Assembly (NCBI GenBank): GCA_963663275.1
Contig: OY760183.1
Coordinates: 2,688,001 to 2,752,000 of the forward strand
Direction: 5' to 3'
Length of the DNA: 64,000 nucleotides
From: Chloroflexota bacterium
GTDB lineage: Bacteria > Chloroflexota > UBA11872 > VXOZ01
The notes under the pieces are model-generated. The model had not been told where the DNA came from, ran no database searches, and saw only the letters and a program-made list of their open reading frames with translations. Within the stretch, counting starts at the first letter, position 1. The number at the start of each line of letters is the position of its first letter. Shown piece after piece: positions 14,004 through 41,330 of the stretch. The translations under genes and the position numbers were made by a program.

Positions 14004-14174
14004 GAGCCTGTTTACGATCTGCTTAGAGGGTGTCTGTGAAGCCGTTGCAAACCGTTCGTGCTGAGCCTGTCGAAGCATGAACGGCAATTCGCAGCCTCGC
14101 GGCAGTTCCGTTTACCCTTCGACAGGCTCAGGGCGAACATCCCTCGTGCAGACAAAACGATCGTAAACAGGTTC
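14004..14174. mobile_element. MITE type D (171 bp), IS5-like ends, carrying a family D REP doublet
   Basis: TIR GAGCCTGTTTACGATC / GATCGTAAACAGGTTC (15/16). TTA duplicated at 14001-14003 and 14175-14177. Internal CTGAGCCTGTCGAAG...CTTCGACAGGCTCAG. Confidence 0.8.
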
Positions 14175-14732
14175 TTACCGCACCGGCTCGGTCTGAGAGC
14201 GGCGCGCGGCTTCCGCGTCCGCGGCGAAATCGGCCCCGTCGTGCCGCTCCGGCTCATACGCCTCGTAGGCGCGGTCTCGATAGAGCAGCGGCACACGCGC
14301 CCTGCCCGCGCCGGCCGCTTCAACCTGGCCGATGAAGAGCACGCCGGATCCGGCCCGGTGCAAGGCGTAGACGGCGCAATCGAGCCAGCAGACGCTCTCC
14401 GGGAAGATGGGCGCGCCCGTCACCGCGCTGTCATGGGCAATATGCTCGAACACCGCGTCCTTGGCGGTGCCGGGACGGGCGAAGGCCGCGCCGATCGGCT
14501 GTTGCGCCACGCCCAGCACGTTCACGGCGAACGCGCCGGCCGCCTGGATGCGGCGGCACGTGGCGTTGCTCTCGGACACGCTGATCATGACCAGCGGCGG
14601 TTCCAGGGCAATCGACGTAAACGAACTCGCCGTCATGCCGTGCAGCCCTTCCGCGTCCCGCACCGTTACCACCGTAACGGGCTGCGCCACCTGGCGCATG
14701 ACGGCGCGGAATGTCTCAGCGTCTAGCGGCAT
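14175..14732 (-). CDS. Flavin reductase-like protein
   Basis: FRAVMRQVAQPVTVVT, HGMTASSFTSIALEPPLV, FAVNVL and PLLY motifs. Confidence 0.9.
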   Translation of the reverse strand: MPLDAETFRAVMRQVAQPVTVVTVRDAEGLHGMTASSFTSIALEPPLVMISVSESNATCRRIQAAGAFAVNVLGVAQQPIGAAFARPGTAKDAVFEHIAHDSAVTGAPIFPESVCWLDCAVYALHRAGSGVLFIGQVEAAGAGRARVPLLYRDRAYEAYEPERHDGADFAADAEAARRSQTEPVR

Positions 14733-14828
14733 GTGGCCCTCGTGCTCCCTGCGGCGGGACTTATATTCACTAACGCAGTCTTACGTATAGTATACCGCAC
14801 CACTAGGAATTCCGGGTTGCGGGCGCGC

Positions 14829-16205
14829 TCAGTGATGCCCAAGGTGCCAGTCCATCAGTTGTTGCTTCAGCCCCGCCGCCACGCCGGCCCGCGCGGGGTC
14901 GTGGTAGCAATTGCGCAGTTCCCACGGGTCGGCGCGCAGGTCGTAGAGTTCGTTGTGCTCGCGTCCCGGCGTGTAGACCAGTTTCCACTCAGGCGTGCGC
15001 ACCATCGTGGAAATCTCGGTCTGGCGTCCGCTGGCCGGCGGGCCGAACGGCAGGTTGTTTCCCCGCGCGGGATCGTCCACCATACCGGCGGGAAACGCGC
15101 CCACCTCGGCGAACGCCACGTCCCGCAGGCGCTCCTTGCCTTCCCACACCGGCGCGAACGAGCGGCCGTGCATATTCTCCGGCGGCTCCATGCCAATCCA
15201 GTCCAATACGGTCGGCGCGACGTTGGTGGAATCCGTGATTTCGGCCATGCGCTCGCCCTGGGGTACCAGGTGATCGGGACCCGCAATGAGGGCCGGCACG
15301 CGGACCAGGCAGTCGTACAGGGTGCAACTCTTGCCGAACATGCGGTGTTCGGCGGCATAGTCGCCGTGATCTGACGAATAGATGATTACCGTGTTGTCCA
15401 GCAGGCCGCGCGCTTCCAGGAACGCCAGCAGGCGCGCCACCTGGTCGTCCAGGTGATTGACCATGCCGTAGTAGACGGCCAGCGCCTTGCGCACTTCCCG
15501 CTCGTCCGCGTCCCACGTGCCGCCGTCCCGCGCCGTCTGTTCCTGTGCCGGCGGCTTGGCGGCGTCCGGGCCTTCCACCGGCGGCAGGGCGATGCGCGCG
15601 GGGTCGTAGCGAGAGAAGTAGGGCTCCGGCACGAAGAACGGCGGATGGGGGTCCATGTAGGCGATGTGCAGCAGGAACGGTCTTTGGCGGCTGCACGCCT
15701 CGACGAAGTTCATGCCGATCGTGGTCATGGCGCCGTTCAGGTCTTCATCCGGCGCCAGCGGCACTTCCGCCACCATGTGCTGCACGCGCTCCGGCGCTTG
15801 CTGGACCAATTCTCGCCGCAAGCGACTGCGCTCGCCCAAGACGCCTTTGCTGATGTCGTGCTGAAACTCGAAACCGCGTCCACCGCCGCCGCGTCCGCCG
15901 TGAAAGTGGCCGACCGCTCCGGTCTGGTAGCCCGCCTCGCGCAGCAGTTCCGCCAGCGTGATCTCGTAGTGCGGCAGGTTGTAGCCATTGCCGTGCACGC
16001 CGATGGCGTGGGCGTAGCGGCCCGTCATCAAGACGCAGCGCGCGGGCAGGCAGAATGGGTGCGGCGTATAGTAGTGCTCGAAGAGCGCGCCCCGTTGCGC
16101 CAGGTCTTCGAGCGCCGGGGTCTTGACGTCGGGATTTCCATACAGCCCCAGGCTCGTCGCCTTCTGCTGATCCGCCAGCAGCAGCACGACGTTTGGCAAT
16201 GCCAT
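14829..16205 (-). CDS. Formylglycine-dependent sulfatase (choline-sulfatase-like)
   Basis: PNVVLLLADQ, CLPAR (CxPxR), DPHPPF, SSDHGD and ELYDLRADPWE motifs. Confidence 0.92.
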   Translation of the reverse strand: MALPNVVLLLADQQKATSLGLYGNPDVKTPALEDLAQRGALFEHYYTPHPFCLPARCVLMTGRYAHAIGVHGNGYNLPHYEITLAELLREAGYQTGAVGHFHGGRGGGGRGFEFQHDISKGVLGERSRLRRELVQQAPERVQHMVAEVPLAPDEDLNGAMTTIGMNFVEACSRQRPFLLHIAYMDPHPPFFVPEPYFSRYDPARIALPPVEGPDAAKPPAQEQTARDGGTWDADEREVRKALAVYYGMVNHLDDQVARLLAFLEARGLLDNTVIIYSSDHGDYAAEHRMFGKSCTLYDCLVRVPALIAGPDHLVPQGERMAEITDSTNVAPTVLDWIGMEPPENMHGRSFAPVWEGKERLRDVAFAEVGAFPAGMVDDPARGNNLPFGPPASGRQTEISTMVRTPEWKLVYTPGREHNELYDLRADPWELRNCYHDPARAGVAAGLKQQLMDWHLGHH

Positions 16206-16265
16206 GCCTCACCTCTTCCTGATGTGTGCAAGCGCCGGAAATTCGCTCAGATCTGTTCCACTTCG

Positions 16266-16340
16266 TGTTGTCAGCTTGAGGAACGTGTTCATGTTGTCAG
16301 CACGAGGAACGTTCGCCTTGAGCCTGTCGAAAGGTGAACG
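16266..16340. repeat. Degenerate family D REP preceded by a direct duplication with 26-bp period
   Basis: TGTTGTCAGCnnGAGGAACGT at 16266 and 16292; CGTTCGCCTTGAGCCTGTCGAAAGGTGAACG at 16310-16340. Confidence 0.7.
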
Positions 16341-16449
16341 GAGTCGCCGCAAGGCGGCGAATTGCCACTCTAACTGCGACACGCTCTTTAACGATTCCGT
16401 GTTCGCGCTACCCCGTCAAGCTGAGCGCCCCTTTGCTTCTCATCGACTG

Positions 16450-16482
16450 AAAACAAAAGAACCGGGGGACTTCCCCAGTTCT
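16450..16482 (-). terminator. Rho-independent terminator of the infC-hypothetical operon
   Basis: Minus strand reads AGAACTGGGG-AAGTC-CCCCGGTTCT followed by TTTGTTTT. Confidence 0.75.
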
Positions 16483-16515
16483 CGTATCAGGCCGGGCCGC
16501 CCGCAATGCCCGCAC

Positions 16516-17175
16516 TCAGTCGGTTTCTTCCGCGCCCGCGTCCATGTGCGTTAGCAGGGCGGTTGCCCAGTGGGCGCGGCGCAGGCGCGCGGACTCGGCG
16601 CTGAAGCCGGAAGGCTCGCCCGCGAACAGCCGCTCCAGGCGCGCGTGGTCTCCCTGCAAGTAGAGCCGCACCTTCATCACGCCGTAGGCGTATTCGGGAT
16701 GATTCTCCGCCAGGTAGGCGAAAATCGAACCGGACGCCCGCTCGAACCGCTCCTTGTTGCCGGCGGTGAGCACGAGCGTCTCCGTCTCTTGCAGGATGTT
16801 GCGGGGTTCGATGCGCACGCGGCTGGCAACGTCCTGCACCGACAACCCCTGCTCCTGCGCCAACTCCCGAAAGCGCAGCACGACCTCATCGTCGCTCAGC
16901 CGCCGCAGTTCGGTCCGCGGCTCGCGGGACTCGAGATTTTCGCGGATGCTATCCCAGTCGATCTCCAAGTGCGGGTAGAGTTCGGACATCTCGAACTGGA
17001 GGTCGGTGGTGACGCGCGGCCGTTCTCCCAAATACGCCAGGAACTGGGTGCGGGTACCCAGGTCGTCCACGATGTCGCGCACCAGCCACGCCACCCAGAG
17101 ACCGGCCTCTTGCCGTCCCGCGACAGCTTCCGGCACCCACTTTATGTAAACATTCTCCCGCGCCGACTCTGGCAC
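16516..17175 (-). CDS. Hypothetical protein with possible XRE-like HTH segment
   Basis: 14 bp downstream of infC; LRFRELAQEQGLSVQDVASRVRI resembles an HTH. Confidence 0.7.
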   Translation of the reverse strand: MPESARENVYIKWVPEAVAGRQEAGLWVAWLVRDIVDDLGTRTQFLAYLGERPRVTTDLQFEMSELYPHLEIDWDSIRENLESREPRTELRRLSDDEVVLRFRELAQEQGLSVQDVASRVRIEPRNILQETETLVLTAGNKERFERASGSIFAYLAENHPEYAYGVMKVRLYLQGDHARLERLFAGEPSGFSAESARLRRAHWATALLTHMDAGAEETD

Positions 17176-17189
17176 AGTGCCGTCGCTTC

Positions 17190-17759
17190 CTACTGCTGCG
17201 TTGCCTCTTTCGCCTTGGGCGCCGCGCCGTCGCCGCGCGCTCGCCGCGCGTTGGGTTTAGGACTGAGGTACGTCGAAAGCTGGTTGCCCTCCATGATGGG
17301 CCTTCTTTCCACCACGGCCACGTCCTCCAGCCGCTCCAGCACGCGGCGCAGCACGTCGTGGCCATGCTCCGGATGGGCCATCTGCCGCCGGAGAAAGCGA
17401 ACGAACGCCTTGACCTTGTGGCCTTCCTCCAAGAACTTGCAAATGCGGTCCACACGATAGTCGATATCGTGCTTATCCATCACCGGGCTGAAACGCACCT
17501 CTTTCAATGAGGAAGCGGCGCGATTCTTGCGCGAGTTTCGCTCCTCCTTGGTCTGGCGGTACTTGTACTTGCCGTAGTCCATGAGCCGGCAGACCGGGGG
17601 TGAAGCGTTTGGGGAAACCTCCACCAGGTCCACGCCGCGCTCCTGGGCCAACGCAAGCGCCTGCTCCAGACCGAGTATGCCGATCTGCTCGCCGTCTTCG
17701 TCGATTACGCGAACTTCGCGTGCTCGAATTTCACGGTTATTGCGCGCGTCTTTGACTAT
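17190..17759 (-). CDS. infC: Translation initiation factor IF-3 (ATA start)
   Basis: Extending the track ORF upstream gives IVKDARNNREIRAREVRVIDEDGEQIG...DLVEVSPNASPPVCRLMDYGKYKY. ATA at 17759-17757 follows AGGAGG. Confidence 0.95.
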   Translation of the reverse strand: MVKDARNNREIRAREVRVIDEDGEQIGILGLEQALALAQERGVDLVEVSPNASPPVCRLMDYGKYKYRQTKEERNSRKNRAASSLKEVRFSPVMDKHDIDYRVDRICKFLEEGHKVKAFVRFLRRQMAHPEHGHDVLRRVLERLEDVAVVERRPIMEGNQLSTYLSPKPNARRARGDGAAPKAKEATQQ

Positions 17760-17800
17760 AGCTCATTCCTCCTGGGGTGCTGCGCCTCAAGTCTCGCTGG

Positions 17801-17830
17801 ACTATACCATATTGATATTCCAGGAATCAA
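17801..17830 (-). promoter_or_regulatory. Putative infC promoter
   Basis: Minus strand TTGATT-N18-TATAGT with extended -10 TG. Confidence 0.5.
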
Positions 17831-17843
17831 GACCCGTCCAGCA

Positions 17844-18908
17844 TTAACTCACGCGAATTCGATGGCCGGTTTCTCCGCCCACAGCCGGGCGCGCCGCCTC
17901 GTGCCGGGCCGCAGGCGGTCGGTACTGGACTGCCGTCAGACCGTCGCTCGCCGCGCCGCGCTTCGCTCGCGCCAGCGCCGGTTCCCGCGCCCGGACAGCC
18001 AGCGAGCGCTTCAGCGCCAGTTCGCCCTCGGTCTCGCTAAAGCCGCAATCCAGGAACGCCTGGCATACGTCCGCCGCGTGCGCCGGCGTCCTTGACCAGA
18101 CCGCCGCGCCGCCTCGCTCTCTCGCATGGCGCAGCGCGGTGGCGACCAGGTCTCGCGCCAATTCCCGGCGGCCCAGCGCAACGCCAATCTGAGCGCGCAT
18201 CGTGCCGCCGCCGCCCCGCGATTCCGTGAGCCAGCCCGCCAAGCCGCCTTCATCCTCGACCACCCAGCGGGTTGCCTGAAACGAGAGCCGGGGAACGCCG
18301 CGCCGCAATTGCCAGTCACGAGCCGTAAGCCCTTCCGCCAGGCGCACGTTCTGGGGTGTCGTGCGCAGATAGAGTTGGTGCAGCGGCCAGGCGTCCCGCT
18401 GCTCCTGCAAGCGCAGGCCGGGCACGTCCGGCGCGTTTGCGCTGAACGGAGCGTGCAGCGCAAAGGCGCGCTCCCGCGTCACGACGGCAAACCCCGCCTG
18501 ACGCAAGGGCGCTACGAGACAACTCTCTTCCGGCACGCGCGCGACAACACCCATGATGCGCTGCGCGCCGGCAACGCGGCACACTTCATCGAGTAGCGAC
18601 AAGAGGCGGGCGCTCACCGCGTCGTCCGCGTCGGATGAGTCCCGCCGCAGCCCGGCGACGGCGAGGTACATTACTTCCCACTGGTCTCGGCCGGACTGCC
18701 GCGCCATCTGCGCCACGGCAACGGTCCGCCGTCCTTCCCATACCGCCACCGCGCACGACGCCGGCATGACCGTGCTTAAGAACAACCCCATCGCCGGCGA
18801 CCACGGCGTGTTGGCGGTAACGAGCGACGCTCCCGCCGCGCGCTGCAAGCGCCACGCCCGCAGGATTCGCAGCGGATCGTGCCGTGTAACTTCAGCCGCT
18901 TGAAACAT
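17844..18908 (-). CDS. Hypothetical protein, probable tandem GNAT-like folds
   Basis: Follows pdxT on the same strand; two similar halves with GNAT-like endings LRQAGF and FLDCGF. Confidence 0.65.
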   Translation of the reverse strand: MFQAAEVTRHDPLRILRAWRLQRAAGASLVTANTPWSPAMGLFLSTVMPASCAVAVWEGRRTVAVAQMARQSGRDQWEVMYLAVAGLRRDSSDADDAVSARLLSLLDEVCRVAGAQRIMGVVARVPEESCLVAPLRQAGFAVVTRERAFALHAPFSANAPDVPGLRLQEQRDAWPLHQLYLRTTPQNVRLAEGLTARDWQLRRGVPRLSFQATRWVVEDEGGLAGWLTESRGGGGTMRAQIGVALGRRELARDLVATALRHARERGGAAVWSRTPAHAADVCQAFLDCGFSETEGELALKRSLAVRAREPALARAKRGAASDGLTAVQYRPPAARHEAARPAVGGETGHRIRVS

Positions 18909-18974
18909 GACGTGCCATGATACGCGGTTGCGCCGGCCGCTTTGACGCGCATTCCGCCCGGGTCGTCTGCGGCG

Positions 18975-19562
18975 CTACGCGCTCACCCGCGCGCAGAGCG
19001 TGAGAAAGTACTGGTGCAACCGCCGGTCGGCCACTATCTCCGGATGGAATGCGGTGGCGAGCACGGCGTCCTGTTGTATCGCTACCATGCAGCCATTGGA
19101 GGGCAGGCGGCCCAGCACTTCCACGTCGGGGCCAACGGACTCTACTACCGGCGCGCGAATGAAGACGGCGGGAAACGGATCCCCCTCTATGCACCGCAGG
19201 GGCACGTCGGCCTCGAAACTCTCCACCTGGCTGCCAAAGGCGTTGCGCCGGATGCGCGTATCCATGACTCTCAGCAGGGGCTGTTCATGAACGCCGATGT
19301 CGTTGGCCAAGAGAATCATGCCGGCGCAGGTGCCCCAGGCCGCCATCGCGCCCGCCAGGATGCGCTCGCGAATGGGCTCCACCATGTCGTAGATCACCAT
19401 CAGCTTGCCGATGGTCGTGCTCTCGCCCCCCGGGATGATGAGGCCCCGCACGCCCTCCAGGTCTCGCGGCAACCTGACCTGAGCGGCTTCCACCCCCAGG
19501 TCGCGGAGGGCGTTGACGTGCTCGCGCACGTCGCCCTGCAGCGCCAGCACGCCGACTTTCAT
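18975..19562 (-). CDS. pdxT: Pyridoxal 5'-phosphate synthase glutaminase subunit
   Basis: MKVGVLALQGDVREH, IPGGESTT, GTCAGMILL, RNAFGSQVESFE and FHPE motifs. Confidence 0.97.
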   Translation of the reverse strand: MKVGVLALQGDVREHVNALRDLGVEAAQVRLPRDLEGVRGLIIPGGESTTIGKLMVIYDMVEPIRERILAGAMAAWGTCAGMILLANDIGVHEQPLLRVMDTRIRRNAFGSQVESFEADVPLRCIEGDPFPAVFIRAPVVESVGPDVEVLGRLPSNGCMVAIQQDAVLATAFHPEIVADRRLHQYFLTLCARVSA

Positions 19563-19569
19563 GCCGCCT

Positions 19570-20451
19570 CTACCACCCTCGCACCGCGAGCAACTCTTCA
19601 CTGGGCATAGAGCGCACGTCCATGCCCGACATCGGCTCGCCCAAGCCGCGCGAGACTTCGGCGACGATCTGCGCATCCTGATAGTGGGTAGTCGCCTTGA
19701 CGATGGCGGCGGCCCGGATTGCCGGGTCTTCCGACTTGAAGATGCCGGAACCCACGAAGTTGCCGTCGCAGCCGAGTTGCATCATGAGTGCCGCGTCGGC
19801 CGGCGTGGCGATGCCTCCCGCCGAAAAATTGACAACGGGCAAAGCGCCGCGTTCCGCCACTTCCACCACCAGCGCGTGCGGCGCGCCCAGCTCTTTCGCC
19901 TCCGCCATGAGTTCTTCCGGGCGCATGTTCTGCAGGCGGCGAATTGCGCCGCCTACGGCGCGGATGTGCCGCACGGCTTCCACCACGTTGCCCGTGCCGG
20001 CCTCGCCCTTGGTGCGGATCATGGCCGCGCCCTCGCCGATGCGGCGCAGGGCCTCGCCCAGGTCGCGCGCGCCGCACACGAAGGGAATCGTAAAGGCATT
20101 CTTCTCGATGTGATGCTCTTCGTCGGCCGGCGTAAGCACTTCCGATTCGTCGATGTAGTCAATGCCCAACGCCTCGAGCACCTGCGCCTCCACGAAGTGG
20201 CCGATGCGGCACTTGGCCATGACGGGAATGGTGACCGCGTGCTTGATCTGCGTAACCAGTTCGGGGTCCGACATGCGCGCAACGCCGCCTTGGGCACGAA
20301 TGTCCGCCGGCACCCGCTCCAGCGCCATCACGGCGACGGCGCCGGCGTCCTCGGCGATGCGCGCCTGCTCAGGCGTGACAACGTCCATGATGACGCCGCC
20401 CTTGAGCATCTGCGCCATGCCGCTTTTCACAAGCCACGTACCCTTTTCCAT
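19570..20451 (-). CDS. pdxS: Pyridoxal 5'-phosphate synthase lyase subunit
   Basis: [32 protein letters not shown] and [16 protein letters not shown] motifs; ends in RGW. Confidence 0.98.
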
Positions 20452-20724
20452 AGTCTCCGCCTTTAGGTGTGCTATGCCTTACCCACGTGCCTGACCGTTC
20501 ATTCACCAATGGTACCTGCCAATGACCGACTCGGCAAGAGGGGAGCGTTTTTCCGCCGCATACGCGGATTGCCGAACTGCCGCGGCCGCGACTCCGCTTC
20601 CCGCCGCCGGTTGTCATGCGGGTTTACAGGTTTGATAGTGAGTATTGCATCTGGTATAGTGATGCGCCAGTAGCAGCGGCGTAGCGCAGGTGGCGCGGCC
20701 GGTAGATGAGTTGCGGGGATACCA

Positions 20725-22803
20725 GTGCTGACCGTACAGATGGGCCAAGCTGCGTTGGTTGGCAACCGGCGCCAATCGACCAGCCCATGGGCGCACACCT
20801 TCCAGGATGCCTCTTCGGATGAAGACCGAGGCGCTCTCTATCTGAACCTGGAGGGTGTGGACGAAGAAATGGCGCGCGCCATTGCGCAGGAAATCGCGCG
20901 CGTCTACTTCGAGAACGTCACCGTAAGCACGGAAACCGCCCTGCTGCGCAGCGTACGCCACGCCTACCGCCAACTCTACGACGCCCGCGCCGCGGAATCC
21001 CTTGGCGACGTGGGCATCACCGCCGTCGTCATACTCGACGATCGCGCTTCGATCGCGCAGGTGCTGCCCACGCAGTTCTATCTGATACAAGACGACGAGA
21101 TTACCGCCCTGCCCGATGCGCAAGATCGCCTGAGCGGGCCCGCGTCCCCGCCGCAGTCGCCGTCGTCGGCCACCGAGGGCCGCTATCCCCAGTGGGAGCC
21201 TCCGGTAGGGCTGTTTCGCGCGTCTCCCAGCGCCCAGGACATTGCCGCGCTCTGCACCGACAACATCGGCGCCGTGCTGAGCGCAAGCGAAATTCAAGAC
21301 GTCGTTGGCCGCGGCAGTATCCAATCGGCGGCGGAAAACCTGGTCGATACCGCGCGGCAGCGCGGCGAAGAGACTGCCTCGGTTCTCCTGCTGCGCTTCG
21401 TCGCGGTCAGGGAGAGGGTGGAAACGACGGAAGAAGCGCCTGAGACCGCTGCGGAATCGGCGTTCGCGGCGCAGCCGGAGCCTGCAGCGCAGCCGGAGTC
21501 CGCAGCGGATGCGGCGCAAGCGCCAACCCAGTCCAAACCCCGGCGGAGCGGCAATCCACTCGTCACGTTCTTGGGATTGCTGCTTGCCCTCGTGCTGCTC
21601 GCGTGGTCTACCATCGCCTCGCTCTTTCGTCCACGCGGCCGGCGCTCCGAATCTCTGCCCGGCGGCGCGTCCGGCCCGGCGACGGAGTCGACGATACCGA
21701 CGCGCGGCGGACCCGGCCAGGACCGCCGCCAGCGGATTAGCCGGCTTGTCGCCGGCGGCGCCGTCATTCTTCTCCTGATCGCCCTTGTCATCGCGGCAAA
21801 CGCGCTCTTTGGAGAGCAGGACCCGGCCGTCAGCGTGACTGAAGACCCCACCGCCACGCCTCAAGCGCAGGCCACGGCCACGCCGACCCAGGCGGCCGCC
21901 GCCGCTTCGCCCGCGCCGGCGGAGTCAACCCCGGAGGCAACGCCGGAACCGCCCGCCGCGGCCGCTCCGGGCAGCGTGCAACTCACCGCGTCGCAGGACC
22001 TGGTGCGGTTCGATCCAACCGTGCAGCAACCGGGCGAAATCTACGGGCTGGATAACACCGTCTACGTTATCGACCGCGCCAGCGGCGCGGTGTATCGCGT
22101 CGGCTCGGACGGCAGCAACGAAATCGCCTATCAGCCGGACGCCGCCACCGGCAGCGCCGCCAGGCACGTCACGGGCAGAGAGGGCGTTATCCAAATTCTC
22201 GATACCGACAACCGGCTCTTCCACGTCACCAACGAAGCGGCGCCGCAACTCGTGGAGTTGCCCGTTGGCTCGGTGGAGCAGCCGCGCTCGACCGCCACGT
22301 ACGACGAGAATTTCTACGTCCTCGACACGGCCGCCAACGACGTGCTGCGCTTCCGGCCGGTTGGCAGCGGCGTCTATAGCGAGCCCGAAGGGTACTTTGG
22401 CGTCAACAGCGGGGTGGATCTGGCGCAAGCGACGGACCTTGCCATCGACGGTTCCGTGTACATCCTCTTCAGCGACGGCACCGTCAATCGCTATATAGGG
22501 GGCGCGCGCGCCGACTTTTCCCTGGCGACGCTGCCGTCACCCGTGGGCGTCCCCGGCGTGATATTCATCAGCCAGGGCATGGGTTCGCTCTACATCCTGG
22601 ACGGGGATAACGGCCGGATTGTCCAAGTGACCACCGAAGGCGTCTACCAGCGGCAATTCCTGGCGCCGGACGGCGTCATCTCCAACACGTTGGATCTGTA
22701 CGTCAATGAAGATGAGACGTCACTCTGGCTCGTCAGCCCCACCGGCGTGACCCGCTACCCGCTGCCGACCCTGCCGGAGGACGCGCCCCGCTCGCCTGAG
22801 TAA
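20725..22803 (+). CDS. Membrane protein: degenerate PP2C-like N-terminal domain, TM segments, P/T/A linker, C-terminal NHL-like beta-propeller
   Basis: ALCTDNIG...AAENLVDTARQRG resembles the PP2C C-terminus. Two hydrophobic stretches; repeats such as FYVLD, DLAIDGSVYIL and LYILDGDNGRIV. Confidence 0.75.
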   Translation: MLTVQMGQAALVGNRRQSTSPWAHTFQDASSDEDRGALYLNLEGVDEEMARAIAQEIARVYFENVTVSTETALLRSVRHAYRQLYDARAAESLGDVGITAVVILDDRASIAQVLPTQFYLIQDDEITALPDAQDRLSGPASPPQSPSSATEGRYPQWEPPVGLFRASPSAQDIAALCTDNIGAVLSASEIQDVVGRGSIQSAAENLVDTARQRGEETASVLLLRFVAVRERVETTEEAPETAAESAFAAQPEPAAQPESAADAAQAPTQSKPRRSGNPLVTFLGLLLALVLLAWSTIASLFRPRGRRSESLPGGASGPATESTIPTRGGPGQDRRQRISRLVAGGAVILLLIALVIAANALFGEQDPAVSVTEDPTATPQAQATATPTQAAAAASPAPAESTPEATPEPPAAAAPGSVQLTASQDLVRFDPTVQQPGEIYGLDNTVYVIDRASGAVYRVGSDGSNEIAYQPDAATGSAARHVTGREGVIQILDTDNRLFHVTNEAAPQLVELPVGSVEQPRSTATYDENFYVLDTAANDVLRFRPVGSGVYSEPEGYFGVNSGVDLAQATDLAIDGSVYILFSDGTVNRYIGGARADFSLATLPSPVGVPGVIFISQGMGSLYILDGDNGRIVQVTTEGVYQRQFLAPDGVISNTLDLYVNEDETSLWLVSPTGVTRYPLPTLPEDAPRSPE

Positions 22804-22944
22804 GCGCGCGAGACACTCACGGCTTGTTCCCCTGCGGTCTACGCCGCCGTGGTTTCATGTTGTTCGCACCAGCCGTTCCCCGCTTGCCGCGCCTCTCCGC
22901 CGCTGCGCCCGGAGGCCATGGCGTGACTCCATGCTCATGAAGGG

Positions 22945-23105
22945 CTGACAGCGGTATGTAAGTGTCATTCCGAGCGGAGCGTCGCACAGGGTTCGTGGAA
23001 TTTAGAGATGTAGATTTTGCAGTGTGGCGCCTTAGATTCCTCTCTCCGCTGCGCTCCGCTCGGAATGACACGGGAAATCGCAAATAGAGTACATACCCCT
23101 ATCAG
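22945..23105. mobile_element. MITE type B (161 bp) carrying a family A REP doublet
   Basis: TIR CTGACAGCGGTATGTA / TACATACCCCTATCAG (14/16). Exact 11-bp TSD CTCATGAAGGG at 22934-22944 and 23106-23116. Confidence 0.85.
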
Positions 23106-23178
23106 CTCATGAAGGGAGGAAAGTTGGGATGGGAGTGATACGAATTGACAGTATGCTATCTTCAGTTTCAAACGAAGT

Positions 23179-23207
23179 CTGGATTCCGGGTTTCGCCGGA
23201 ATGACAG
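23179..23207. repeat. Family E REP-like hairpin (GGATTCCGGnnTTCnCCGGAATGAC)
   Basis: Related copy at 39899-39927. Confidence 0.75.
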
Positions 23208-23381
23208 CGCTGGGCCAGGGCCTCGCCCGGATGTGCGAGAATGAGGAGAGACGCCGGCGTCCGCGTCTGAGCCGGCTGAAGACGGCGGACTGCCTGCCGG
23301 AGACTGCGGCTTGCGGGGCGGGCCGCGGACGGCGGTCGCAATGGCGAAGAAGCGGCAAGGCTGCGCGAAGGCGGATGAAGC

Positions 23382-24659: not shown

Positions 24660-24695
24660 CCCATTTGCCGTGCCGGACCCGATCGGGGCGAAATC

Positions 24696-26281: not shown

Positions 26282-26441
26282 AACGCGCCTCCCGTTGGCT
26301 TCTGCCGGACTACTCTATCCCACAGTATACTGGCAGGCAGGAGGAAATAGCACCGGCGCCGACAAACCCCCGGCCATCGCGACGCGCCGGCCTCGGCTCA
26401 TGCTCTCGCATGAAAACCCCCGTAGTGCGGGGGCTTGTCCC

Positions 26442-26603
26442 CAATACTGTCGCATTAACGTAGCGCGGGGGCTTGTCCCCCGCCGGAACAAGAAAAATGA
26501 GAACGGAATGGATTGACCTTACGGAAGACGCAGGTTACAAACCTGCGCTACCGGAGAAACGAGCGTTGTTTTCACTCTCATTGTGTTTAATGCGACAGCA
26601 TTG
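26442..26603 (+). mobile_element. MITE type A (162 bp), IS4-like ends, carrying an inverted B+C REP doublet, inserted in a family B REP
   Basis: TIR CAATACTGTCGCATTAA / TTAATGCGACAGCATTG (16/17). 11-bp TSD GGGCTTGTCCC at 26431-26441 and 26604-26614. Confidence 0.88.
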
Positions 26604-26652
26604 GGGCTTGTCCCCCGCTCCTCCGCATGGCCGTAGCACGGACCCTTGTCCC

Positions 26653-31950: not shown

Positions 31951-31955
31951 CACGC

Positions 31956-32846: not shown

Positions 32847-32867
32847 GAGCAAATCTCCTTCGTAGCA

Positions 32868-32908
32868 GAAAAGGGCAGTGGCCGCGCCGGGGCCGCCACT
32901 GCCCTTTC
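32868..32908 (-). terminator. Strong stem-loop between the SBP and permease genes (attenuating terminator or mRNA stabiliser)
   Basis: 13-bp stem AAAGGGCAGTGGC / GCCACTGCCCTTT, ending in a T run on the minus strand. Confidence 0.7.
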
Positions 32909-32930
32909 GATTGCCGGGACGGATACGCGG

Positions 32931-34229: not shown

Positions 34230-34515
34230 GGCGAACTCCTTCCTCCTTACTACACCTACCTTGACGTATATTGCCTACCGCAGACCGAACGCCGGAATCA
34301 TAAGAGACTCCATGCCGTCAATCGCGGAGCATACCCAGACGTACTCTAGCACACGAAAAAGTTACTGACAACCCTCAAGTACGTGCGTTTTGCCGTTTAT
34401 TCCAAAGAGTGCTAACGGCGCATATCCACTGAAACGCGCTTCACAGCGCCGGGATGCCCCGCCGCGTTGCGCGCCCAGGCCACGCGCAAAGCGCGGACGC
34501 CAGCGGGGCGCCTCG

Positions 34516-35271: not shown

Positions 35272-35371
35272 GCGCTCACTCGTTCCACTGTTTCTTGCCT
35301 GTTCGCCTGCGTGCGCGTACCATCTCCACTACGACTGCTTCCATAGATGCCATTCAGGAGGAGGAACTCCG

Positions 35372-36163
35372 TTGCTGCTTGCCGTTTCTGAAAACATGAT
35401 ACCTGGCGCGGGCTATGGCGAGAAACTCCGCTGCCTGCGTGAGGCCGGCTACGACGGCATCGAACTCTTCCCCGACATTGCCGGCCGGCATACCGCAGAG
35501 CTTAAGCAAGCCATGGCCGATACGGGCATCGTCGCGCCGAGCATGCGCGGCCGCACGCGCGACCTGCTGTCTGCCGATCCGTCCGCGCGCCGCGACCAGA
35601 TCGAGCGCCTGCGGGGTGTCTGCGCGCTGGCCGAGGAGTGCGGTGTGGGCGTGGTGGTCATCGTGCCCGTCTTTGGCGGCCCCAACCTGCCGGATTTGTC
35701 GCCGTGGCGTTCCGCTATCGAACTTGAAGAAGCCCTCCTGGATACGATCCTGCCTACAATCGGCGTGGTCGCGGCGGATCACGGCGTTACGCTGGTAATG
35801 GAGCCGCTCAACCGCTACGAGACCCACTATCTCAAAACCCTGGCGCACGGCGCGGCGCTTTGCCAACGCGCGCACCATCCCAGCGTGCGCGTCATGGCGG
35901 ATTTCTTCCACATGCACATCGAGGAGGCGGACGTAGCCGCGAGCCTTGCCGACAATCTGGCATACGTCAGCCACGTGCACCTGGCCGACAGCAACCGCGA
36001 CCTGCCAGGCAGAGGCCATACGGACTTCGCGCCCGCGTTCCGCGTGTTGAAGCAACGCAGCTTCAGCGGCGCGTTCGCGCTTGAGTGCTCGCGCCGGGGG
36101 TCGCCGGACTTCGGCCTGAAGGAAAGCGCCGCCTACATACGCGGCATTTGGCAGGCGGCCTGA
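35372..36163 (+). CDS. Sugar phosphate isomerase/epimerase (D-tagatose/psicose 3-epimerase-like)
   Basis: EPLNRYET, DFFHMHIEE and HVHLADSNRDLPG motifs; TTG at 35372 follows GGAGG. Confidence 0.9.
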   Translation: MLLAVSENMIPGAGYGEKLRCLREAGYDGIELFPDIAGRHTAELKQAMADTGIVAPSMRGRTRDLLSADPSARRDQIERLRGVCALAEECGVGVVVIVPVFGGPNLPDLSPWRSAIELEEALLDTILPTIGVVAADHGVTLVMEPLNRYETHYLKTLAHGAALCQRAHHPSVRVMADFFHMHIEEADVAASLADNLAYVSHVHLADSNRDLPGRGHTDFAPAFRVLKQRSFSGAFALECSRRGSPDFGLKESAAYIRGIWQAA

Positions 36164-36251
36164 GCGGCGACCGGATAGAGCCTCCGCGTGCAATTGCCTG
36201 GTCGGCAGTCTTGCCCCGGCCTAAGCCGCGGCGCGGCCTGCGGCGGCGGAT

Positions 36252-38066
36252 CTATTCCGCGCCGTCGGCCGTAAGCGTGAACGCCACGGCGCGCACGGCC
36301 AGCGGCACCACGTTGCGCACGTGCAGCGTGCGCGCGTCCAGCACGAGAATAGCGCCCGCGTGCGGCGCTAGGGCGTAGAGAATGTTGCGGCCCGGATCGA
36401 GCGCCAACTGCGTAATGCCTCCCCCCTGCCACAACTCGCGCTCCACGCTGCCGTCGGACGTATTGATCATCGTCAACGCCGCCGGCTCTCTGATTTGGCC
36501 AGCCTCATCTGCCGCCGCCTCTTCACCCGCGGCATCCCCACCCGAACTGCCTCCGCTCGAGGAGGTATTGCTCGAGGAGCCGTCGCTGGTCAACCGCGAT
36601 CGAAAGCCGGAAACAAAACCGGTGGCGCCAACGTTGCCGCCGGACGATTGCGTCCGGTCGGCGACCGGCTCATCCGGCAGCGGACCGGTCTCGACGCTCA
36701 GGTAGAGGGCGGCGCCGTCGGCGTCCAGGATGCCATGCGCGGCCCGCGCCGCCGGCAGCGCCGCCACCCGCACGGCCTGGCCGGTGTCCAGGTCTACGCG
36801 CCACAGCGCTTCCGTCTCCGGCGTGGTCACGTAGGCCGAAGCGCCGTCAGCGGCAGGCACGACTGCGCCCAGCGCCAGGCCGGCGCCAATCGTGATGGTT
36901 TCCCCCACGCTGCGGGATTCCAGCTCCACCCGCGCCATCTGCGAGCGGTCGATCGACACGGCCAGTATCGCGGTTTCGCCCAGCGGCAGCAGCCTATCCA
37001 CCGCCCACGGCAACGGAACGTCGGCTGCCGATTCGTCACTCTGATCCGTTACCATCAGCGAGGTGGCGGTGGCGGAACCCACCACCGTGTACGGGCCTGC
37101 GATTGCCAGGCTGCTCCAGTCCTGTTCCGGCAGGCCCATGAGCCGGCCCACCTGCTGGGATTGGGCGTCTACGGTCAGCAATCCGTCTTCTTGCAGAATG
37201 TAGAGGGTTTTGCCGTCGGCGGAAAGTCCCAACGCGCGGGGTTCGCCGCCGACGCCGGTGACCGTAGCCGGCCGCAAATCGACGGCGTCGTACGCCAGCA
37301 ACGCGCCGGTATCGGCAACGCCCAGCACCAGAATCGTCTTCGGCTCCGCGGCGGCCTGTTCCGGCGCGGCCTCGTCCTCCTCCTGAACGCGCAGCAGCGA
37401 GAAGAGCACGGAGCCCGTCAGCGCCAGCGCCAGAAGCGCTATGCCGACCTGCATGACGCGGGTGCGCGTCGTGGTGTCGCCGGTACCGAGCGCGGCGGCC
37501 ACGTCGGCGCGGAGGCCCGCGCCGGGGCGGGGCGCGTGGAGTTGGCGCAAAGCGCGCTCGATCGCGGCGCGGTCGGCATCGCCGTCCGGCGGACGGAACT
37601 CCGCGCGCGCCCGCTCCAGCAGTGACTCCACGCGCTCCAGCGATGCACCCATCGCCTCCGCCGTCTGGCTCTGGGGCATGCCCTCCGCCAGGGTCAGCAG
37701 CCAGACCACGCGCAGGCGCGGCGGCAGCGCGACCGCGGCCTGGCGCCAGGGGAGTGTGCGCTCATCGACCTCCACCGGACCGTCCGGGCGGCGCGAGAGC
37801 CATTGCCACCGCCTGGAAGCGAGAAACGTCCGCACCGCCATGCGATAGAACCAGGTATCCAGCACCATGGTGCGGGGCCGTTTGGGGAAGGCCCGATACG
37901 CGCGGCGGAAGGCGGCCACGACCAACGCGCGCGCTTCGTCCTCGTTCCCGGTGAGCCAGAAGCAGAAGCGGTACAGCATCGGGCCGAACTGATCGTAGAG
38001 CCCGAGGAATGCGTCCCGGTCGCCGCTTTCGGCCGCCGCGAGAATTCGTCCCCGGTTGACAAGCAT
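36252..38066 (-). CDS. ECF-type sigma factor fused to a TM helix and a C-terminal beta-propeller (YncE/YVTN-like)
   Basis: Sigma region 2 GDRDAFLGLYDQF...TWFYRMA and region 4 LPPRLRVVWLL...TAEAMG...LERAR. TM VGIALLALALTGSVLFSLL. Propeller repeats GGEPRALGLSADGKTLYI and ADGASAYVT. Confidence 0.8.
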   Translation of the reverse strand: MLVNRGRILAAAESGDRDAFLGLYDQFGPMLYRFCFWLTGNEDEARALVVAAFRRAYRAFPKRPRTMVLDTWFYRMAVRTFLASRRWQWLSRRPDGPVEVDERTLPWRQAAVALPPRLRVVWLLTLAEGMPQSQTAEAMGASLERVESLLERARAEFRPPDGDADRAAIERALRQLHAPRPGAGLRADVAAALGTGDTTTRTRVMQVGIALLALALTGSVLFSLLRVQEEDEAAPEQAAAEPKTILVLGVADTGALLAYDAVDLRPATVTGVGGEPRALGLSADGKTLYILQEDGLLTVDAQSQQVGRLMGLPEQDWSSLAIAGPYTVVGSATATSLMVTDQSDESAADVPLPWAVDRLLPLGETAILAVSIDRSQMARVELESRSVGETITIGAGLALGAVVPAADGASAYVTTPETEALWRVDLDTGQAVRVAALPAARAAHGILDADGAALYLSVETGPLPDEPVADRTQSSGGNVGATGFVSGFRSRLTSDGSSSNTSSSGGSSGGDAAGEEAAADEAGQIREPAALTMINTSDGSVERELWQGGGITQLALDPGRNILYALAPHAGAILVLDARTLHVRNVVPLAVRAVAFTLTADGAE

Positions 38067-38423
38067 CGCCGCCCTCGGTCCGTTTCACGCTGCGCAATTG
38101 CCTGACTGCATGGTAGCACACAGGGCGCGCCGCCTTGCCGCTCTGCGCGCAAAGTCCGCGCATGGGCAGCGTCCGAGCGGCGCGGCGCCGCAATTGCGCG
38201 AACCACGCGAAAGATGTACCGTACACGTAATCGGAGACACGTTCGCCAACGTCTTCAAGAGCCCTCTATCCGTTCATTTGAGAGGCAATCGGGACGCGCG
38301 ATTCCCGCTTACGCGCCGCTGCCCGGGGGTTTGTCCTCCGTAACATGGCGCGCCAGGCAAGCATTATCATAAGCGCGCGGCACGACTAACCGCGCGCCGT
38401 TCCCGCACAATCGAGGATTCCCT

Positions 38424-39743
38424 GTGGCATCGACAAGAAGGTCGTTGGTTTCCCATCCCAGCTTGCGCGTCGCCTTCAGGATGTTCGAGTCGGTGCGGAT
38501 TCCCGCCTTCCGCGACCTGTGGATCGGCATGCTCGCCTCGTACGTGGGCATGTACATGGGAATGGTCTCGCGCGGGTACCTGGCCTATGAGCTAACCGGA
38601 TCGGCGACGGTGCTCGGAGTCGTCACCGTCGCGTCGGGAGTGCCCATGCTGCTCCTCTCTCCGCTGGGGGGCGTTCTGGCGGACGTGATGAACCGCCGCT
38701 TCATCCTGATTCACAGCCAGACCTTCATGGTGGTTTCGTCCCTGCTCCTTGCCGCCCTCATTCATCTAGACCTAATCGCCATTTGGCACCTTGTCTTCTT
38801 CGGCTTTCTGCAAGGCGTCCTCTTCACCGTCAACATGCCCGCGCGCTCTTCCGCCCTGCCGCACCTGGTGGGCAGGCCCATGCTGCCCAGCGCAATCGGA
38901 CTGACCAACTCGGGACGCAACCTGATGTCGGTGATTGCCCCGGCCATTGCCGGCACCGTGATCGCGATTCCCTGGCTGGGCACGGCCGGCGCTTTCGACA
39001 TTGCCGCGTTTTGCTACGTGCTCGCAACGTTGCTGATGCTGCGCCTGCCTAAGAGCCTGGCGGACGGGCGCAAGCCGACCGAGGTTGCGCTTGCCCGGCA
39101 GATGATCGATGGCTTCAGTTACATGTTCACGCGCCGCGACCTGCTCGTGCTGCTCGTGCTGGGACTCGTCCCCATTCTCTTCGGTATGCACGTGCACTCC
39201 TTCATGCCGGTGTTCCAAGCGGACGTGCTTGGCGTTGGGGCGGTAGAGTTGGGCCTGCTGCTCTCGGCGCTGGGGGTCGGCGGCACCTTCGGCTCGCTCG
39301 TCATCGCGCCGCTGGCCGAGAGCAAGCACAGCCACGTCATGCAGCTTGCCGCGGGCATCTTCTTCGGCCTGACCCTCATCGCGTTTGCCAGTAGCACGTC
39401 GTTCACCTTCAGCTTGATTACGGCCGGGTGGGTCGGCTTCGCGGGGAATGCCTCCACGGGCCTCAACAGCGCCTTGCTGATGCTGCGGGCGGAGGAGGCG
39501 TACTATGGGCGCGTGATGAGCATCTACATGATGAACTGGTCGCTCATGACGCTCTTCACGCTGCCCCTGGGCATGCTGGTGGACCGCTGGGGCGCGCCGC
39601 TGGTGGTAAGCGTCACCGGAATGGGCATTGTGCTCTTCATGGCCGCCGCGTTCTTCCTCTTCCGCGACGTCCGCGAAGACCGGCCCCACAGCGAGGAGTT
39701 AAGCGTCGAAACCGGCCCCGCAGCCGTTGAGAAGAGCGTCTAG
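38424..39743 (+). CDS. MFS transporter (MFS_3/DUF894-like; start may be 38481)
   Basis: About 12 TM segments; GGVLADVMNRR, PARSS and GRVMSIY motifs. Confidence 0.9.
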   Translation: MASTRRSLVSHPSLRVAFRMFESVRIPAFRDLWIGMLASYVGMYMGMVSRGYLAYELTGSATVLGVVTVASGVPMLLLSPLGGVLADVMNRRFILIHSQTFMVVSSLLLAALIHLDLIAIWHLVFFGFLQGVLFTVNMPARSSALPHLVGRPMLPSAIGLTNSGRNLMSVIAPAIAGTVIAIPWLGTAGAFDIAAFCYVLATLLMLRLPKSLADGRKPTEVALARQMIDGFSYMFTRRDLLVLLVLGLVPILFGMHVHSFMPVFQADVLGVGAVELGLLLSALGVGGTFGSLVIAPLAESKHSHVMQLAAGIFFGLTLIAFASSTSFTFSLITAGWVGFAGNASTGLNSALLMLRAEEAYYGRVMSIYMMNWSLMTLFTLPLGMLVDRWGAPLVVSVTGMGIVLFMAAAFFLFRDVREDRPHSEELSVETGPAAVEKSV

Positions 39744-39803
39744 TGGCATCCCCCAATGGCCTCGGCAGGCAGAAACGTCCCGCCTTGATCCCCTCTCCCG
39801 AAG

Positions 39804-39944
39804 GAGACCTTTGCGTTACCCCTTCCCCATTGAGGGGGAAGGCCGGGATGGGGGTGAAAAGGCTTGACGGCAAGCAATCCAATAGGGTAAAGGCGCCTCT
39901 GGATTCCGGTCTTCACCGGAATGACAGAGTTATGCAAAGGTCTC
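39804..39944. mobile_element. MITE type C (141 bp) carrying family F and family E hairpins, inserted in a family F REP
   Basis: TIR GAGACCTTTGCGTTAC / GTTATGCAAAGGTCTC (14/16). CGAAG duplicated at 39799-39803 and 39945-39949. Confidence 0.8.
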
Positions 39945-39951
39945 CGAAGGG

Positions 39952-40127
39952 CTGACAGGGGTATGTACTCCACAATCGACGCCAAGTGTCATTCCGAGCG
40001 GAGCGAGGAATCTAGTAGAGGTGTTCTTGCAGGGCAATGCCTTAGATTCCGCGCTCTTAGCGACTCTCCGCTGCGCTCCGTTCGGAATGACACGTCGAGC
40101 CAATTCAAGATTGCCTACCCCTGACAG
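39952..40127. mobile_element. MITE type B, second copy (176 bp), carrying a family A REP doublet
   Basis: Left end CTGACAGGGGTATGTA, right end TACCCCTGACAG; TSD degraded; homologous to 22945-23105. Confidence 0.75.
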
Positions 40128-40244
40128 ATCCCAGAGGGAGAAGGAGAGGGATTGGGTGAGGGTGAATCAGAGAATCAGAGCAACTCGGTAAGTAACGAGG
40201 GCGTTCCCTTGCGGGCGCGTGGAAAGCGGGGCAAGGATTAGTCT

Positions 40245-41006
40245 ATGAGCGCATCACGAGACAAGATCGTCGCCTTCCTGGATGAATACCTCGACGTGCG
40301 CGGCATTCGCGACTACGGCCCCATGGGGATGCAAGTAATCGGCAAAGCGGAGGTGAGCCGCGTCGCCGTGGCGGTGAGCGCCTCGCGGGCCTGCTTTGAA
40401 CAAGCGGCGGCGCAAGCGGCGGACATGCTAATCGTTCATCACGGTCTCTTCTGGGACAACGAGAGCCGCGTGATCGGCACGGTGATGCGGGGACGCCTCG
40501 AAACGTTGTTTCAGCATGACGTGAGTCTGCTGGGCTACCATCTCTGCCTCGACAAGCACCCGGAGATCGGCAACAACGCGCTCGGCTTGCGCGCCTTGGG
40601 CGCTACGCCGGTGGAGCGCGACGCGCCCCTCGGCGCGGTAGGGTACGTCGGCGCGTTTTCCAAACCGCTGCCTTGGGACGACCTCGCGACCCGCGTGCGC
40701 AATGTCTTTGGCGGCGAACCGTTCTTCTTTCCAACCGGACCGGCGGAGACGACGCGCCTGGGCCTGATTACCGGCGGCGCGGGCTCTCCCGCCTACGTCA
40801 CGGAGGCGGTGGAACGCGGCTGCGACACCTATCTCACCGGCGACCTCAGCGAGCCCGCGCCCGCCGTGGCCGCCGAATTGGGCATCAACCTCATCGGCGC
40901 CGGTCACTACAACACCGAGAAACTCGGCGTGCAGGCCGTTGGCGGCCTGCTGGAGAGGCGATTTGGGGTGAGCGCCGTTTTCATCGACGTGCCTAATCCG
41001 CTGTAG
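40245..41006 (+). CDS. Nif3-like dinuclear metal-centre protein (YbgI family)
   Basis: DYGPMGMQV, IVHHGLFW, YHLCLDKHPEIGNN, AGHYNTEKLG and DVPNP motifs. Confidence 0.93.
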   Translation: MSASRDKIVAFLDEYLDVRGIRDYGPMGMQVIGKAEVSRVAVAVSASRACFEQAAAQAADMLIVHHGLFWDNESRVIGTVMRGRLETLFQHDVSLLGYHLCLDKHPEIGNNALGLRALGATPVERDAPLGAVGYVGAFSKPLPWDDLATRVRNVFGGEPFFFPTGPAETTRLGLITGGAGSPAYVTEAVERGCDTYLTGDLSEPAPAVAAELGINLIGAGHYNTEKLGVQAVGGLLERRFGVSAVFIDVPNPL

Positions 41007-41028
41007 CGCCGCGGGCGCCCACAAGGGG

Positions 41029-41190
41029 CAATGCTGTCGCATTAACGTAGCGTGGGGGCTTGTCCCCCGCCGGTATGGGAAGAATGAGAAAGAAATGGAT
41101 TGACCATACGGAAGACGCAGGTTACAAACCTGCGCTACCGGAGAAATGAGCGTAGTTTTCACTCTCATTGCGTTTAGTGCGACAACATTA
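41029..41190 (+). mobile_element. MITE type A, third copy (162 bp), inserted in a different GTAG-type REP
   Basis: TIR CAATGCTGTCGCATTAA / TTAGTGCGACAACATTA. 11-bp TSD CCCACAAGGGG at 41018-41028 and 41191-41201. The reconstructed empty site is the hairpin GGGCGCCCACAAGGGGCGCCCCTAC. Confidence 0.88.
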
Positions 41191-41330
41191 CCCACAAGGG
41201 GCGCCCCTACCGGATTCCGGCGCCGGTCCGTAGCGGGATAGTACGCCGCACCTTTTAGGCGCCTTGTCAATATATGTGAAGAGACCGAGTTGCCGGTTTG
41301 CGGATCATGCGAATCGGCCGCGGCCCGATG

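Follow-up and report, generated by a model that had tools for sequence, protein, structure and literature searches.

What sends a short non-coding element into the hairpin of a dispersed repeat, when it already carries hairpins of this kind inside itself? This question is raised by a stretch of 64,000 nucleotides from the genome of a Chloroflexota bacterium (assembly GCA_963663275.1, contig OY760183.1, positions 2,688,001 to 2,752,000 of the forward strand), called here the window. It contains seven MITEs (miniature transposable elements with inverted repeats) of 141-176 bp with four types of ends (A, B, C and D), all of them intergenic, between long open reading frames (ORFs). Their interiors, as an initial annotation of the window had proposed, are pairs of hairpins of the repetitive extragenic palindrome (REP) type, which are also found without the ends. 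The window is very probably one slice of a genome-wide, layered set of DDE-type elements for which REP-type hairpins serve as landing pads.

Targets of the element families

Direct reading of the sequence confirmed the coordinates, ends and target-site duplications (TSDs) that had been described for the seven elements; five of the seven have exact TSDs (11, 11, 11, 5 and 3 bp). The elements and the sites hosting them are as follows, in positions of the window.

26442-26603, + strand: MITE A1, 162 bp, at the apex of a REP1 hairpin; ends CAATACTGTCGCATTAA and TTAATGCGACAGCATTG; exact 11-bp TSD GGGCTTGTCCC at 26431-26441 and 26604-26614; cargo REP1 (26460-26483) and inverted REP1b (26520-26553); six genome copies at 100% identity
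26653-26815, - strand: MITE A2, opposite to A1 and 86% identical to it; one degenerate end, without TSD; left flank is half of a REP1-like hairpin
41029-41190, + strand: MITE A3, 162 bp, with 91% identity to A1, seated at the apex of another GC-rich hairpin; exact 11-bp TSD CCCACAAGGGG at 41018-41028 and 41191-41201
22945-23105, + strand: MITE B1, 161 bp; cargo is an inverted pair of REP2 hairpins; exact 11-bp TSD CTCATGAAGGG at 22934-22944 and 23106-23116
23117-23210, + strand: decayed C-type remnant hosting B1 (compared with C by eye), with a REP3 hairpin at 23178-23207
39804-39944, + strand: MITE C, 141 bp, in the loop of a REP5 hairpin; ends GAGACCTTTGCGTTAC and GTTATGCAAAGGTCTC; exact 5-bp TSD CGAAG at 39799-39803 and 39945-39949; cargo a REP5-like hairpin (39821-39842) and REP3 (39899-39927)
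39952-40127, + strand: MITE B2, 176 bp, with imperfect TSD, two bases past the TSD of C in the same REP5 hairpin
39788-40165: host REP5 hairpin split by C and B2; left arm to 39798, right arm and G-rich tail from 40128
14004-14174, + strand: MITE D, 171 bp; ends start GAGCCTGTTTACGATC; cargo is an inverted pair of REP4 hairpins; exact 3-bp TSD TTA at 14001-14003 and 14175-14177

The genome is a single contig (C1) of 3,531,182 bp with 64% G+C, and the counts given below refer to the whole of it. Loci covering at least 80% of the element in blastn number 68 for A, 91-115 for B, 90 for C and 24 for D. Pairs of ends with up to three mismatches number 61, 120, 101 and 25, respectively, including four copies of the insertion sequence (IS) IS-A, one of ISC5, and one chance B pair; the end pairs described from the window thus recur, and with TSDs of fixed length. 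Among the copies aligned to both ends, an exact 11-bp TSD flanks 29 of 45 in family A (33 of 45 when one mismatch is allowed), an exact TSD of 10-12 bp flanks 39 of 89 in family B (59 of 89 with at most one mismatch), and an exact 5-bp TSD flanks 34 of 58 in family C. An exact 3-bp TSD of the TNA type was present in 18 of the 21 full-length copies of family D. With random right flanks, at most about 0.5% of trials reached the TSD lengths of the families.

A de novo repeat survey added family A', which is 175 bp long, has about 10 full copies, and combines the ends of A and an 11-bp TSD in REP1 with a cargo hairpin of GTAG type other than that of A. The same end type hence surrounds different REP cargoes. 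The survey also gave REP5 doublets, REP1 arrays and REP1b arrays. All five families (A, A', B, C and D) have terminal inverted repeats (TIRs) and TSDs of fixed length, are small and non-coding, and reach copy numbers from dozens to more than 100; 0.93% of the genome consists of full-length MITE copies. Recent activity of family A is seen in its sets of 8, 6 and 3 identical copies. Identical copies at different loci with good TSDs were also found for B (seven, for example at 21496, 180069 and 426559 of C1) and D (three, at 257003, 375779 and 2754989). At C1:2896484-2896860 there are three A'-like units with 101-bp spacing, each within a hairpin of the type that A carries as cargo.

Where do these copies land? 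We rebuilt the empty sites of all copies with an acceptable TSD, namely 34 of 45 for A, 59 of 89 for B, 48 of 58 for C and 21 of 21 for D. Family A lies in REP1 in 30 of its 34 sites, at one fixed position and in both orientations (18 and 12). The 59 sites of family B comprise 24 in REP5, 19 in the REP5-like hairpin of C type, 5 beside REP1 and 11 elsewhere, so that 48 of 59 are in or beside a REP-type hairpin. Family C occupies REP5 in 23 of 48 sites, and the remainder are mostly short symmetric sites of the form CC-CNNNG-GG (hyphens set off the five central bases). No D site (0/21) is in a hairpin. These rates, at a fixed position of the hairpin, are far above the genome shares of 0.2-0.4% (REP1 with 567 copies covers 0.39% and REP5 with 364 hairpins 0.21%), and the proposal that A, B and C target REP hairpins was upheld. 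A perfect stem of at least 5 bp is centred on the TSD in 30/34 sites of A, 33/59 of B, 24/48 of C and 0/21 of D, compared with 2.1% of 20,000 random positions. The DNA of REP1 folds into a 7-bp stem with a 5-base loop, and the 11-bp TSD therefore corresponds to this loop together with three bases of the stem at either side.

One could suppose that insertion is random and that copies survive only in harmless REP DNA. All window copies are intergenic and REP clusters are plausible neutral sites, but survival does not account for an insertion at the same nucleotide, with the TSD centred on the loop, in either orientation of family A. The pattern is already present in identical, hence recent, copies. 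Family D is an internal control here, and it shows that living in this genome alone does not send an element into a hairpin. We regard random insertion as highly improbable.

Transposases and nesting

The window contains no transposase gene, as the initial annotation had stated; all matches lie elsewhere in the genome. The whole-genome census of DDE genes gave 21, belonging to four copies of IS-A, one of ISC5, seven of an IS481-family element and nine of an IS30-family element, and there was no genome match to IS110, IS256, IS630 or TnpB models. All 21 of these transposase-bearing copies lie within REP-type hairpins (IS-A 4/4, ISC5 1/1, IS481-like 7/7, IS30-like 9/9).

IS-A is 1194 bp long, inserts into REP1 with 11-bp TSDs, and codes for a 367-aa transposase of the IS4 family (156.9 bits with NF033592, the NCBIfam IS4 model, whose cut-off is 115; 81.8 bits with PF01609, DDE_Tnp_1, whose cut-off is 23). 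The hallmark of the IS4 family is the Y-2-R-3-E-6-K signature, and the stretch YRKRWQIELFFRWLK of the 367-aa product fits this spacing by eye. The termini of IS-A are common to MITE A over 17-21 bases. ISC5, an IS5-family element of 1239 bp in a single copy, lies in a REP5 loop; its transposase scored 297.6 bits with NF033581 (cut-off 140) and has DUF772 and DDE_Tnp_1 domains. Its ends are common to MITE C over 16-20 bases, and ends of C type also flank relatives of ISC5, with an IS5-like gene, in loci of four congeners. The ends of A and C are therefore those of DDE ISs, as had been suspected. The seven IS481-family copies are all in REP5 loops. The IS30-family element, whose transposase scored 237.5 bits with NF033563 (cut-off 80), interrupts one and the same REP3 hairpin in every case and duplicates 3-4 bp, and TTC(C) is seen by eye to be repeated at its junctions. 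IS30-family elements are known to target palindromic hot spots and their own inverted repeats. The fidelity to one REP3 hairpin resembles this habit, but the target here is a dispersed REP which mostly lies inside another MITE, since 48 of the 76 REP3 hits are within full-length C.

IS-A and ISC5 carry no REP cargo and hit the same hairpin positions as their MITEs, while cargo-bearing D hits none (0/21), so the choice of target is set by the transposase and not by the cargo. This result does not support the retargeting into REPs that had been proposed earlier.

Several long repeats were considered as further ISs and rejected: the pair 862129-863331 and 2872804-2874006 (C1) are the two tuf genes, and the pair 2362897-2364712 and 2905128-2906937 (C1) are the two 16S rRNA genes.

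An autonomous partner is thus present in the same genome for A and A' (IS-A) and for C (ISC5), whereas neither the end-pair scan nor the DDE census of the genome found an IS with the ends of B or D. B-end pairs spanning 3646, 4607 and 2071 bp proved to be chance matches or independent MITEs, and they contain no ORF resembling a transposase; in congener G011 a B end beside an IS5-like gene is part of a B copy that this IS has interrupted. Around the DDE_Tnp_1_2 genes of congeners (six loci) no D ends were found, and the abundant IS5-like ISs of congeners have ends of a different kind. A metagenome scan with the 16-base B end gave 104 stretches, about the number estimated by chance; 80 loci were examined, an inverted partner end was found in three of them, and only locus L190 was of IS size. 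The element there (L190:535-1816) is 1282 bp long, has B-like ends (14/16 and 16/16), and contains a 440-aa IS4-like ORF scoring above the Pfam cut-off, with 107 bits in the NCBIfam IS4 model, short of the cut-off of 152. The flanks of the element show no TSD. Judged by its ends and ORF, this element is the only candidate relative for a B partner. Transposases of this type were not found in our genome or in 15 of 16 congeners; the remaining congener, G021, has one partial match of 40% without B ends.

The elements are layered upon one another. B lies within C-type sequence in 21 of 59 sites, and nine different C copies have the IS30-family element in their REP3 hairpin. These counts show that every insertion supplies new hairpins, and that other elements hit these in turn: B in C, IS30 in the REP3 of C. 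Insertions of A within A (1/34) and D within B (1/21) are rare, and no C copy of 48 lies within another MITE. Nesting is mostly heterologous, between families, and the self-nesting cycle of the initial annotation is not supported.

The IS30 insertions also bear on the origin of the MITEs, which could be internal-deletion derivatives of ISs with subterminal hairpins. The argument for such an origin is a unit of 1177 bp that has C ends, contains an IS30-family gene and has 65 and 42 bases in common with MITE C; it might be read as the parent IS of C or as a composite moving as a unit. We rejected both readings. The nine units have a 1033-bp core that is 100% identical, but their C shells are only 77% (left) and 91% (right) alike; the IS therefore entered the REP3 cargo of old C copies nine times, separately and recently. 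Moreover, the same IS30 splits a REP3-like hairpin in 14 loci read from nine congeners, and C ends stood at the expected places in none of 17 IS30 loci scanned from ten congeners. IS-A and ISC5 are common to MITEs A and C in the terminal 16-21 bases only and have nothing of their interiors, so these MITEs are not plain internal deletions. An internal-deletion origin is already contradicted for A and C, and we find it very unlikely in general.

REP families and the origin of the cargo

The head of REP1 is GTAG (its 567 copies were counted with up to three mismatches). The other families gave 182 hits for REP2, 76 for REP3 and 134 for REP4. The cargo differs between MITE families: REP1 and REP1b in A, REP2 in B, a REP5-like hairpin and REP3 in C, and REP4 in D. 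Bare REPs had been listed by the initial annotation throughout the window, and these are real, except that the hairpin at 23179 belongs to the decayed C copy hosting B1. The bare copies are as follows.

4139-4208: end-less inverted doublet of REP2
9121-9306, + strand: array of five REP1 hairpins with 40-bp spacing, REP1 being the target type of family A
12655-12740: end-less inverted doublet of REP1b and REP1, the same kind of pair as the cargo of A
49623-49660, + strand: intact REP5 hairpin with G-rich tail, REP5 being the target type of B and C
52931-52963, + strand: single REP4 hairpin
60271-60376: end-less inverted doublet of REP4

Seven tandem 20-bp units (window 4183-4362) adjoin the REP2 doublet at 4139-4208. 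The sequence at 16289-16386 is 80% complementary to the interior of D, with one REP4 and the central spacer but without the D ends. No Rfam family reached its gathering score within the window.

The genome has a single Y1 (HUH) gene (one match among four candidates), which codes for a REP-associated tyrosine transposase (RAYT; NF047646 95.9 bits, cut-off 80; PF01797 43.5 bits; H-A-H motif in PDHAHLV). This sole RAYT gene, which the initial annotation had suggested looking for, is flanked on both sides by REP1 arrays of opposite orientation, and one IS-A copy (C1:381634-383439) lies directly upstream of it within the REP1 array. REP1 is thereby shown to belong to the genome's single RAYT. A further Y1 gene, as a possible partner of REP2, REP3, REP4 or REP5, was not found in the genome.

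Could the elements then be REPINs (REP doublets forming hairpins) moved by RAYT, with their terminal repeats being the outer parts of a long palindrome? A RAYT is present, REP1 is its repeat, and the elements fold as long hairpins (z of -4.7 and -5.7). However, HUH single-strand transposition of the IS200/IS605 mechanism leaves no TSD, and TSDs of fixed length are present in all families. Besides, the ends of A and C equal those of DDE ISs, and REP1 alone has a RAYT. The elements, having TIRs and TSDs, are evidently moved by an enzyme class other than RAYT, and we consider the RAYT explanation extremely unlikely.

End-less doublets, two inverted REPs with a spacer, were found for REP1/REP1b, REP2 and REP4, and a cognate RAYT is present for REP1/REP1b. 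Those homologous to the interior of A, spacer included, occupy 18-24 loci, depending on the test, and are more diverse than the A interiors. In a tree of 65 doublets (97 columns, midpoint root, many forks open) the end-less doublets form long branches and the MITE interiors short ones.

These doublets bring us to the model proposed in the initial annotation, in which REPINs time and again take over ends from unrelated DDE ISs and are thereby sent into REPs in a general, self-nesting cycle. Several observations speak for capture: all five MITE families have REP-type hairpin interiors, one end type encloses the two cargoes of A and A', the end-less doublets share hairpins and spacer with the A interior and have longer branches, and the short common termini of ISs and MITEs do not fit simple internal deletion. 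The tree weakly favours the view that doublets acquired ends, but its root is arbitrary and the direction of descent is not resolved by it. The data are also compatible with the reverse, the insertion of a REP or REPIN into a mini-IS, and no capture intermediate was found. The rest of the model fares worse: cargo-free ISs choose their targets equally well and cargo-bearing D does not, so the cargo retargets nothing, and self-nesting is nearly absent. As a whole the model seems to us possible, though doubtful.

The core of REP2 (27 bases, 0-2 mismatches) occurs in 19 of 151 sampled Chloroflexota genomes and in 11 of 97 genera, with no hit for the reversed control. Its distribution is patchy and includes distant families, which suggests either horizontal spread or a very old conservation of a REP without a RAYT in our genome.

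Comparison with relatives and known systems

How are these families distributed in the genus? B and C are present in each of the 12 congeners sampled at first. High numbers of A occur only in our genome (48 matches) and in G011 (43), with 0-6 matches in the other 15 genomes of the genus, and only our genome and G011 have an IS-A-type gene among them. The intergenic region that holds C and B2 measures about 500 bp here and 35-85 bp in 12 congeners, where the whole block including REP5 is missing from the orthologous region.

Ten relatives of IS-A with 37-80% identity were examined from Chloroflexia, Thermomicrobiales and one metagenome-assembled genome of Rubrobacteraceae, and all of them keep the ends. 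About six of the ten lie at the apex of other, unrelated hairpins, several of which have a GTAG head, and duplicate about 9-11 bp. Their unrelated targets suggest that it may be the hairpin or palindrome form that is recognized. In some congeners (L053, L064, L052; G008, G001) an IS1182-like IS of about 1668 bp is present in many copies in REP5-type loops; it is a fifth IS family with the REP-hairpin habit.

The behaviour of the layered DDE-type elements, and the mechanism that we favour for it, can be put as follows. IS-A, A and A' insert at the apex of REP1 and duplicate its loop with three stem bases on each side. ISC5 and MITE C insert with a 5-bp duplication at CC-CNNNG-GG, mostly in REP5 loops, and MITE B has its duplications of 10-12 bp at the apex either of REP5 or of the REP5-like hairpin of C. 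MITE D duplicates TNA, ignoring hairpins. The transposases probably act in trans on the MITE ends, that of IS-A on A and A' and that of ISC5 on C. They may choose the target by its symmetric or hairpin form, making staggered cuts that are symmetric about the dyad axis. The REP cargo was presumably taken up by some route from pre-existing REPIN-like doublets; the capture cycle itself is hypothetical.

A number of points weigh against this interpretation. Copies without acceptable TSD (11/45 of A, 30/89 of B, 10/58 of C) were excluded from the target counts, and some of the rebuilt sites are outside any recognized REP (4/34 of A, 11/59 of B, 25/48 of C). Recognition of structure and of sequence is not separated; most A targets share one sequence, and the duplications of the IS-A relatives at L085, L087 and L089 are unclear or shorter. 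Families B and D are represented by identical copies in separate places, yet there is no transposase with their ends in the genome; trans-mobilisation is therefore unproven for these two families. For the cargo's origin the evidence is a midpoint-rooted tree of 97 columns, in which many forks are unresolved. The congeners are too far (about 70-81% identity in flanking genes) for exact empty sites. Seven public runs contain part of the stretch; the contigs of the four that were compared break at the repeats, and none joins across an empty site. No transposition event was observed in the genome comparison or in these four runs.

Which parts of this system are already known? ISs of five families, IS4 and IS5 among them, are described as targeting REPs (Tobes & Pareja 2006, PMC1525189). 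The examples given there are ISPsy8 and IS1397/ISKpn1 (IS3), ISPa11/ISPpu9/ISPpu10 (IS110), ISRm22 (IS4) and ISNm1106 (IS5). As with our elements, each copy breaks the REP at a fixed point and several unrelated IS families are involved; ISRm22 likewise inserts at the dyad axis of a palindrome. In contrast to what is described there, the main users here are non-autonomous MITEs in dozens to more than 100 copies in addition to ISs, all four IS families of one genome (21/21 copies) target REPs, and the elements carry REPs themselves. The duplication of the IS4-type element is 11 bp here against 6 bp there. The novelty suggested by the initial annotation is reduced accordingly, REPs as IS targets being already in print, while we found no MITE with REP cargo that targets REPs.

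REP1 agrees with the REPIN-RAYT systems (Bertels & Rainey 2011, PMC3116915; Nunvar 2010, PMC2817692; bioRxiv 10.1101/2021.07.10.451892) in its GTAG head, hundreds of copies, arrays, inverted doublets and one flanked RAYT. The window elements differ from these systems in having TIRs and TSDs. REPINs and MITEs are treated as distinct kinds in bioRxiv 10.1101/2021.07.10.451892, whereas here a REPIN-like doublet lies inside a MITE. With the bacterial MITEs Nezha, Chunjie, Correia/NEMIS, RUP and ERIC (PMC3184786) our families share a size of 70-300 bp, TIRs, a TSD, non-coding and intergenic character, strong self-folding and ends common to ISs. They differ from the MITEs described there in that their interiors are REP families of the host, their target is the apex of a REP hairpin and nesting between families is systematic. 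Another precedent is given by the REP dimers in long palindromes of Anabaena variabilis (GTAG-15) and by GTAG-23 of Thermomicrobium roseum, in small palindromes (Di Nocera et al. 2013, PMC3733652). There too REP doublets are regularly flanked by inverted-repeat sequence, and one case is from the same phylum. The authors read the REPs as inserted into palindromes, without follow-up, and described no TSDs, IS partners or nesting. In the full-text literature we found no paper on MITEs with REP or REPIN cargo that target REPs, or on MITEs of Chloroflexota; subscription journals and ISfinder were outside the scope of this search, and absence is not proven. Each ingredient is known, but the combination, MITEs which both carry and target REPs in layers, is unusual.

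In this genome REPINs, which are slow, RAYT-dependent and long-lived, and MITEs, which are fast, DDE-dependent and short-lived, are physically combined, and REP hairpins are the common address for every transposable element present. A broader idea can be offered only tentatively, and we think it unlikely to hold in full. According to it, REPIN-like doublets may have switched vehicle: placed between IS ends, they would owe their copying to fast DDE transposases, either in addition to the slow RAYT or in its place. REPs without a RAYT (REP2, REP4, REP5-like) could thereby persist and spread. Since each MITE of this sort supplies new hairpins of the type sought by the transposases of this genome, the landing pads would be regenerated and not consumed, and all mobile DNA in REPs might form a self-sustaining community, in which a clade of the IS4 family reads the hairpin apex by its shape.

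For annotation there is a warning in these results, namely that many "REPs" in such genomes are MITE cargo or debris. If trans-mobilisation and hairpin recognition are both true, this genome would be a natural case of structure-directed targeting by IS4, IS5, IS30 and IS481 transposases. It would also explain how REP families can thrive without a RAYT, and it would account for the build-up of layered intergenic repeat blocks.

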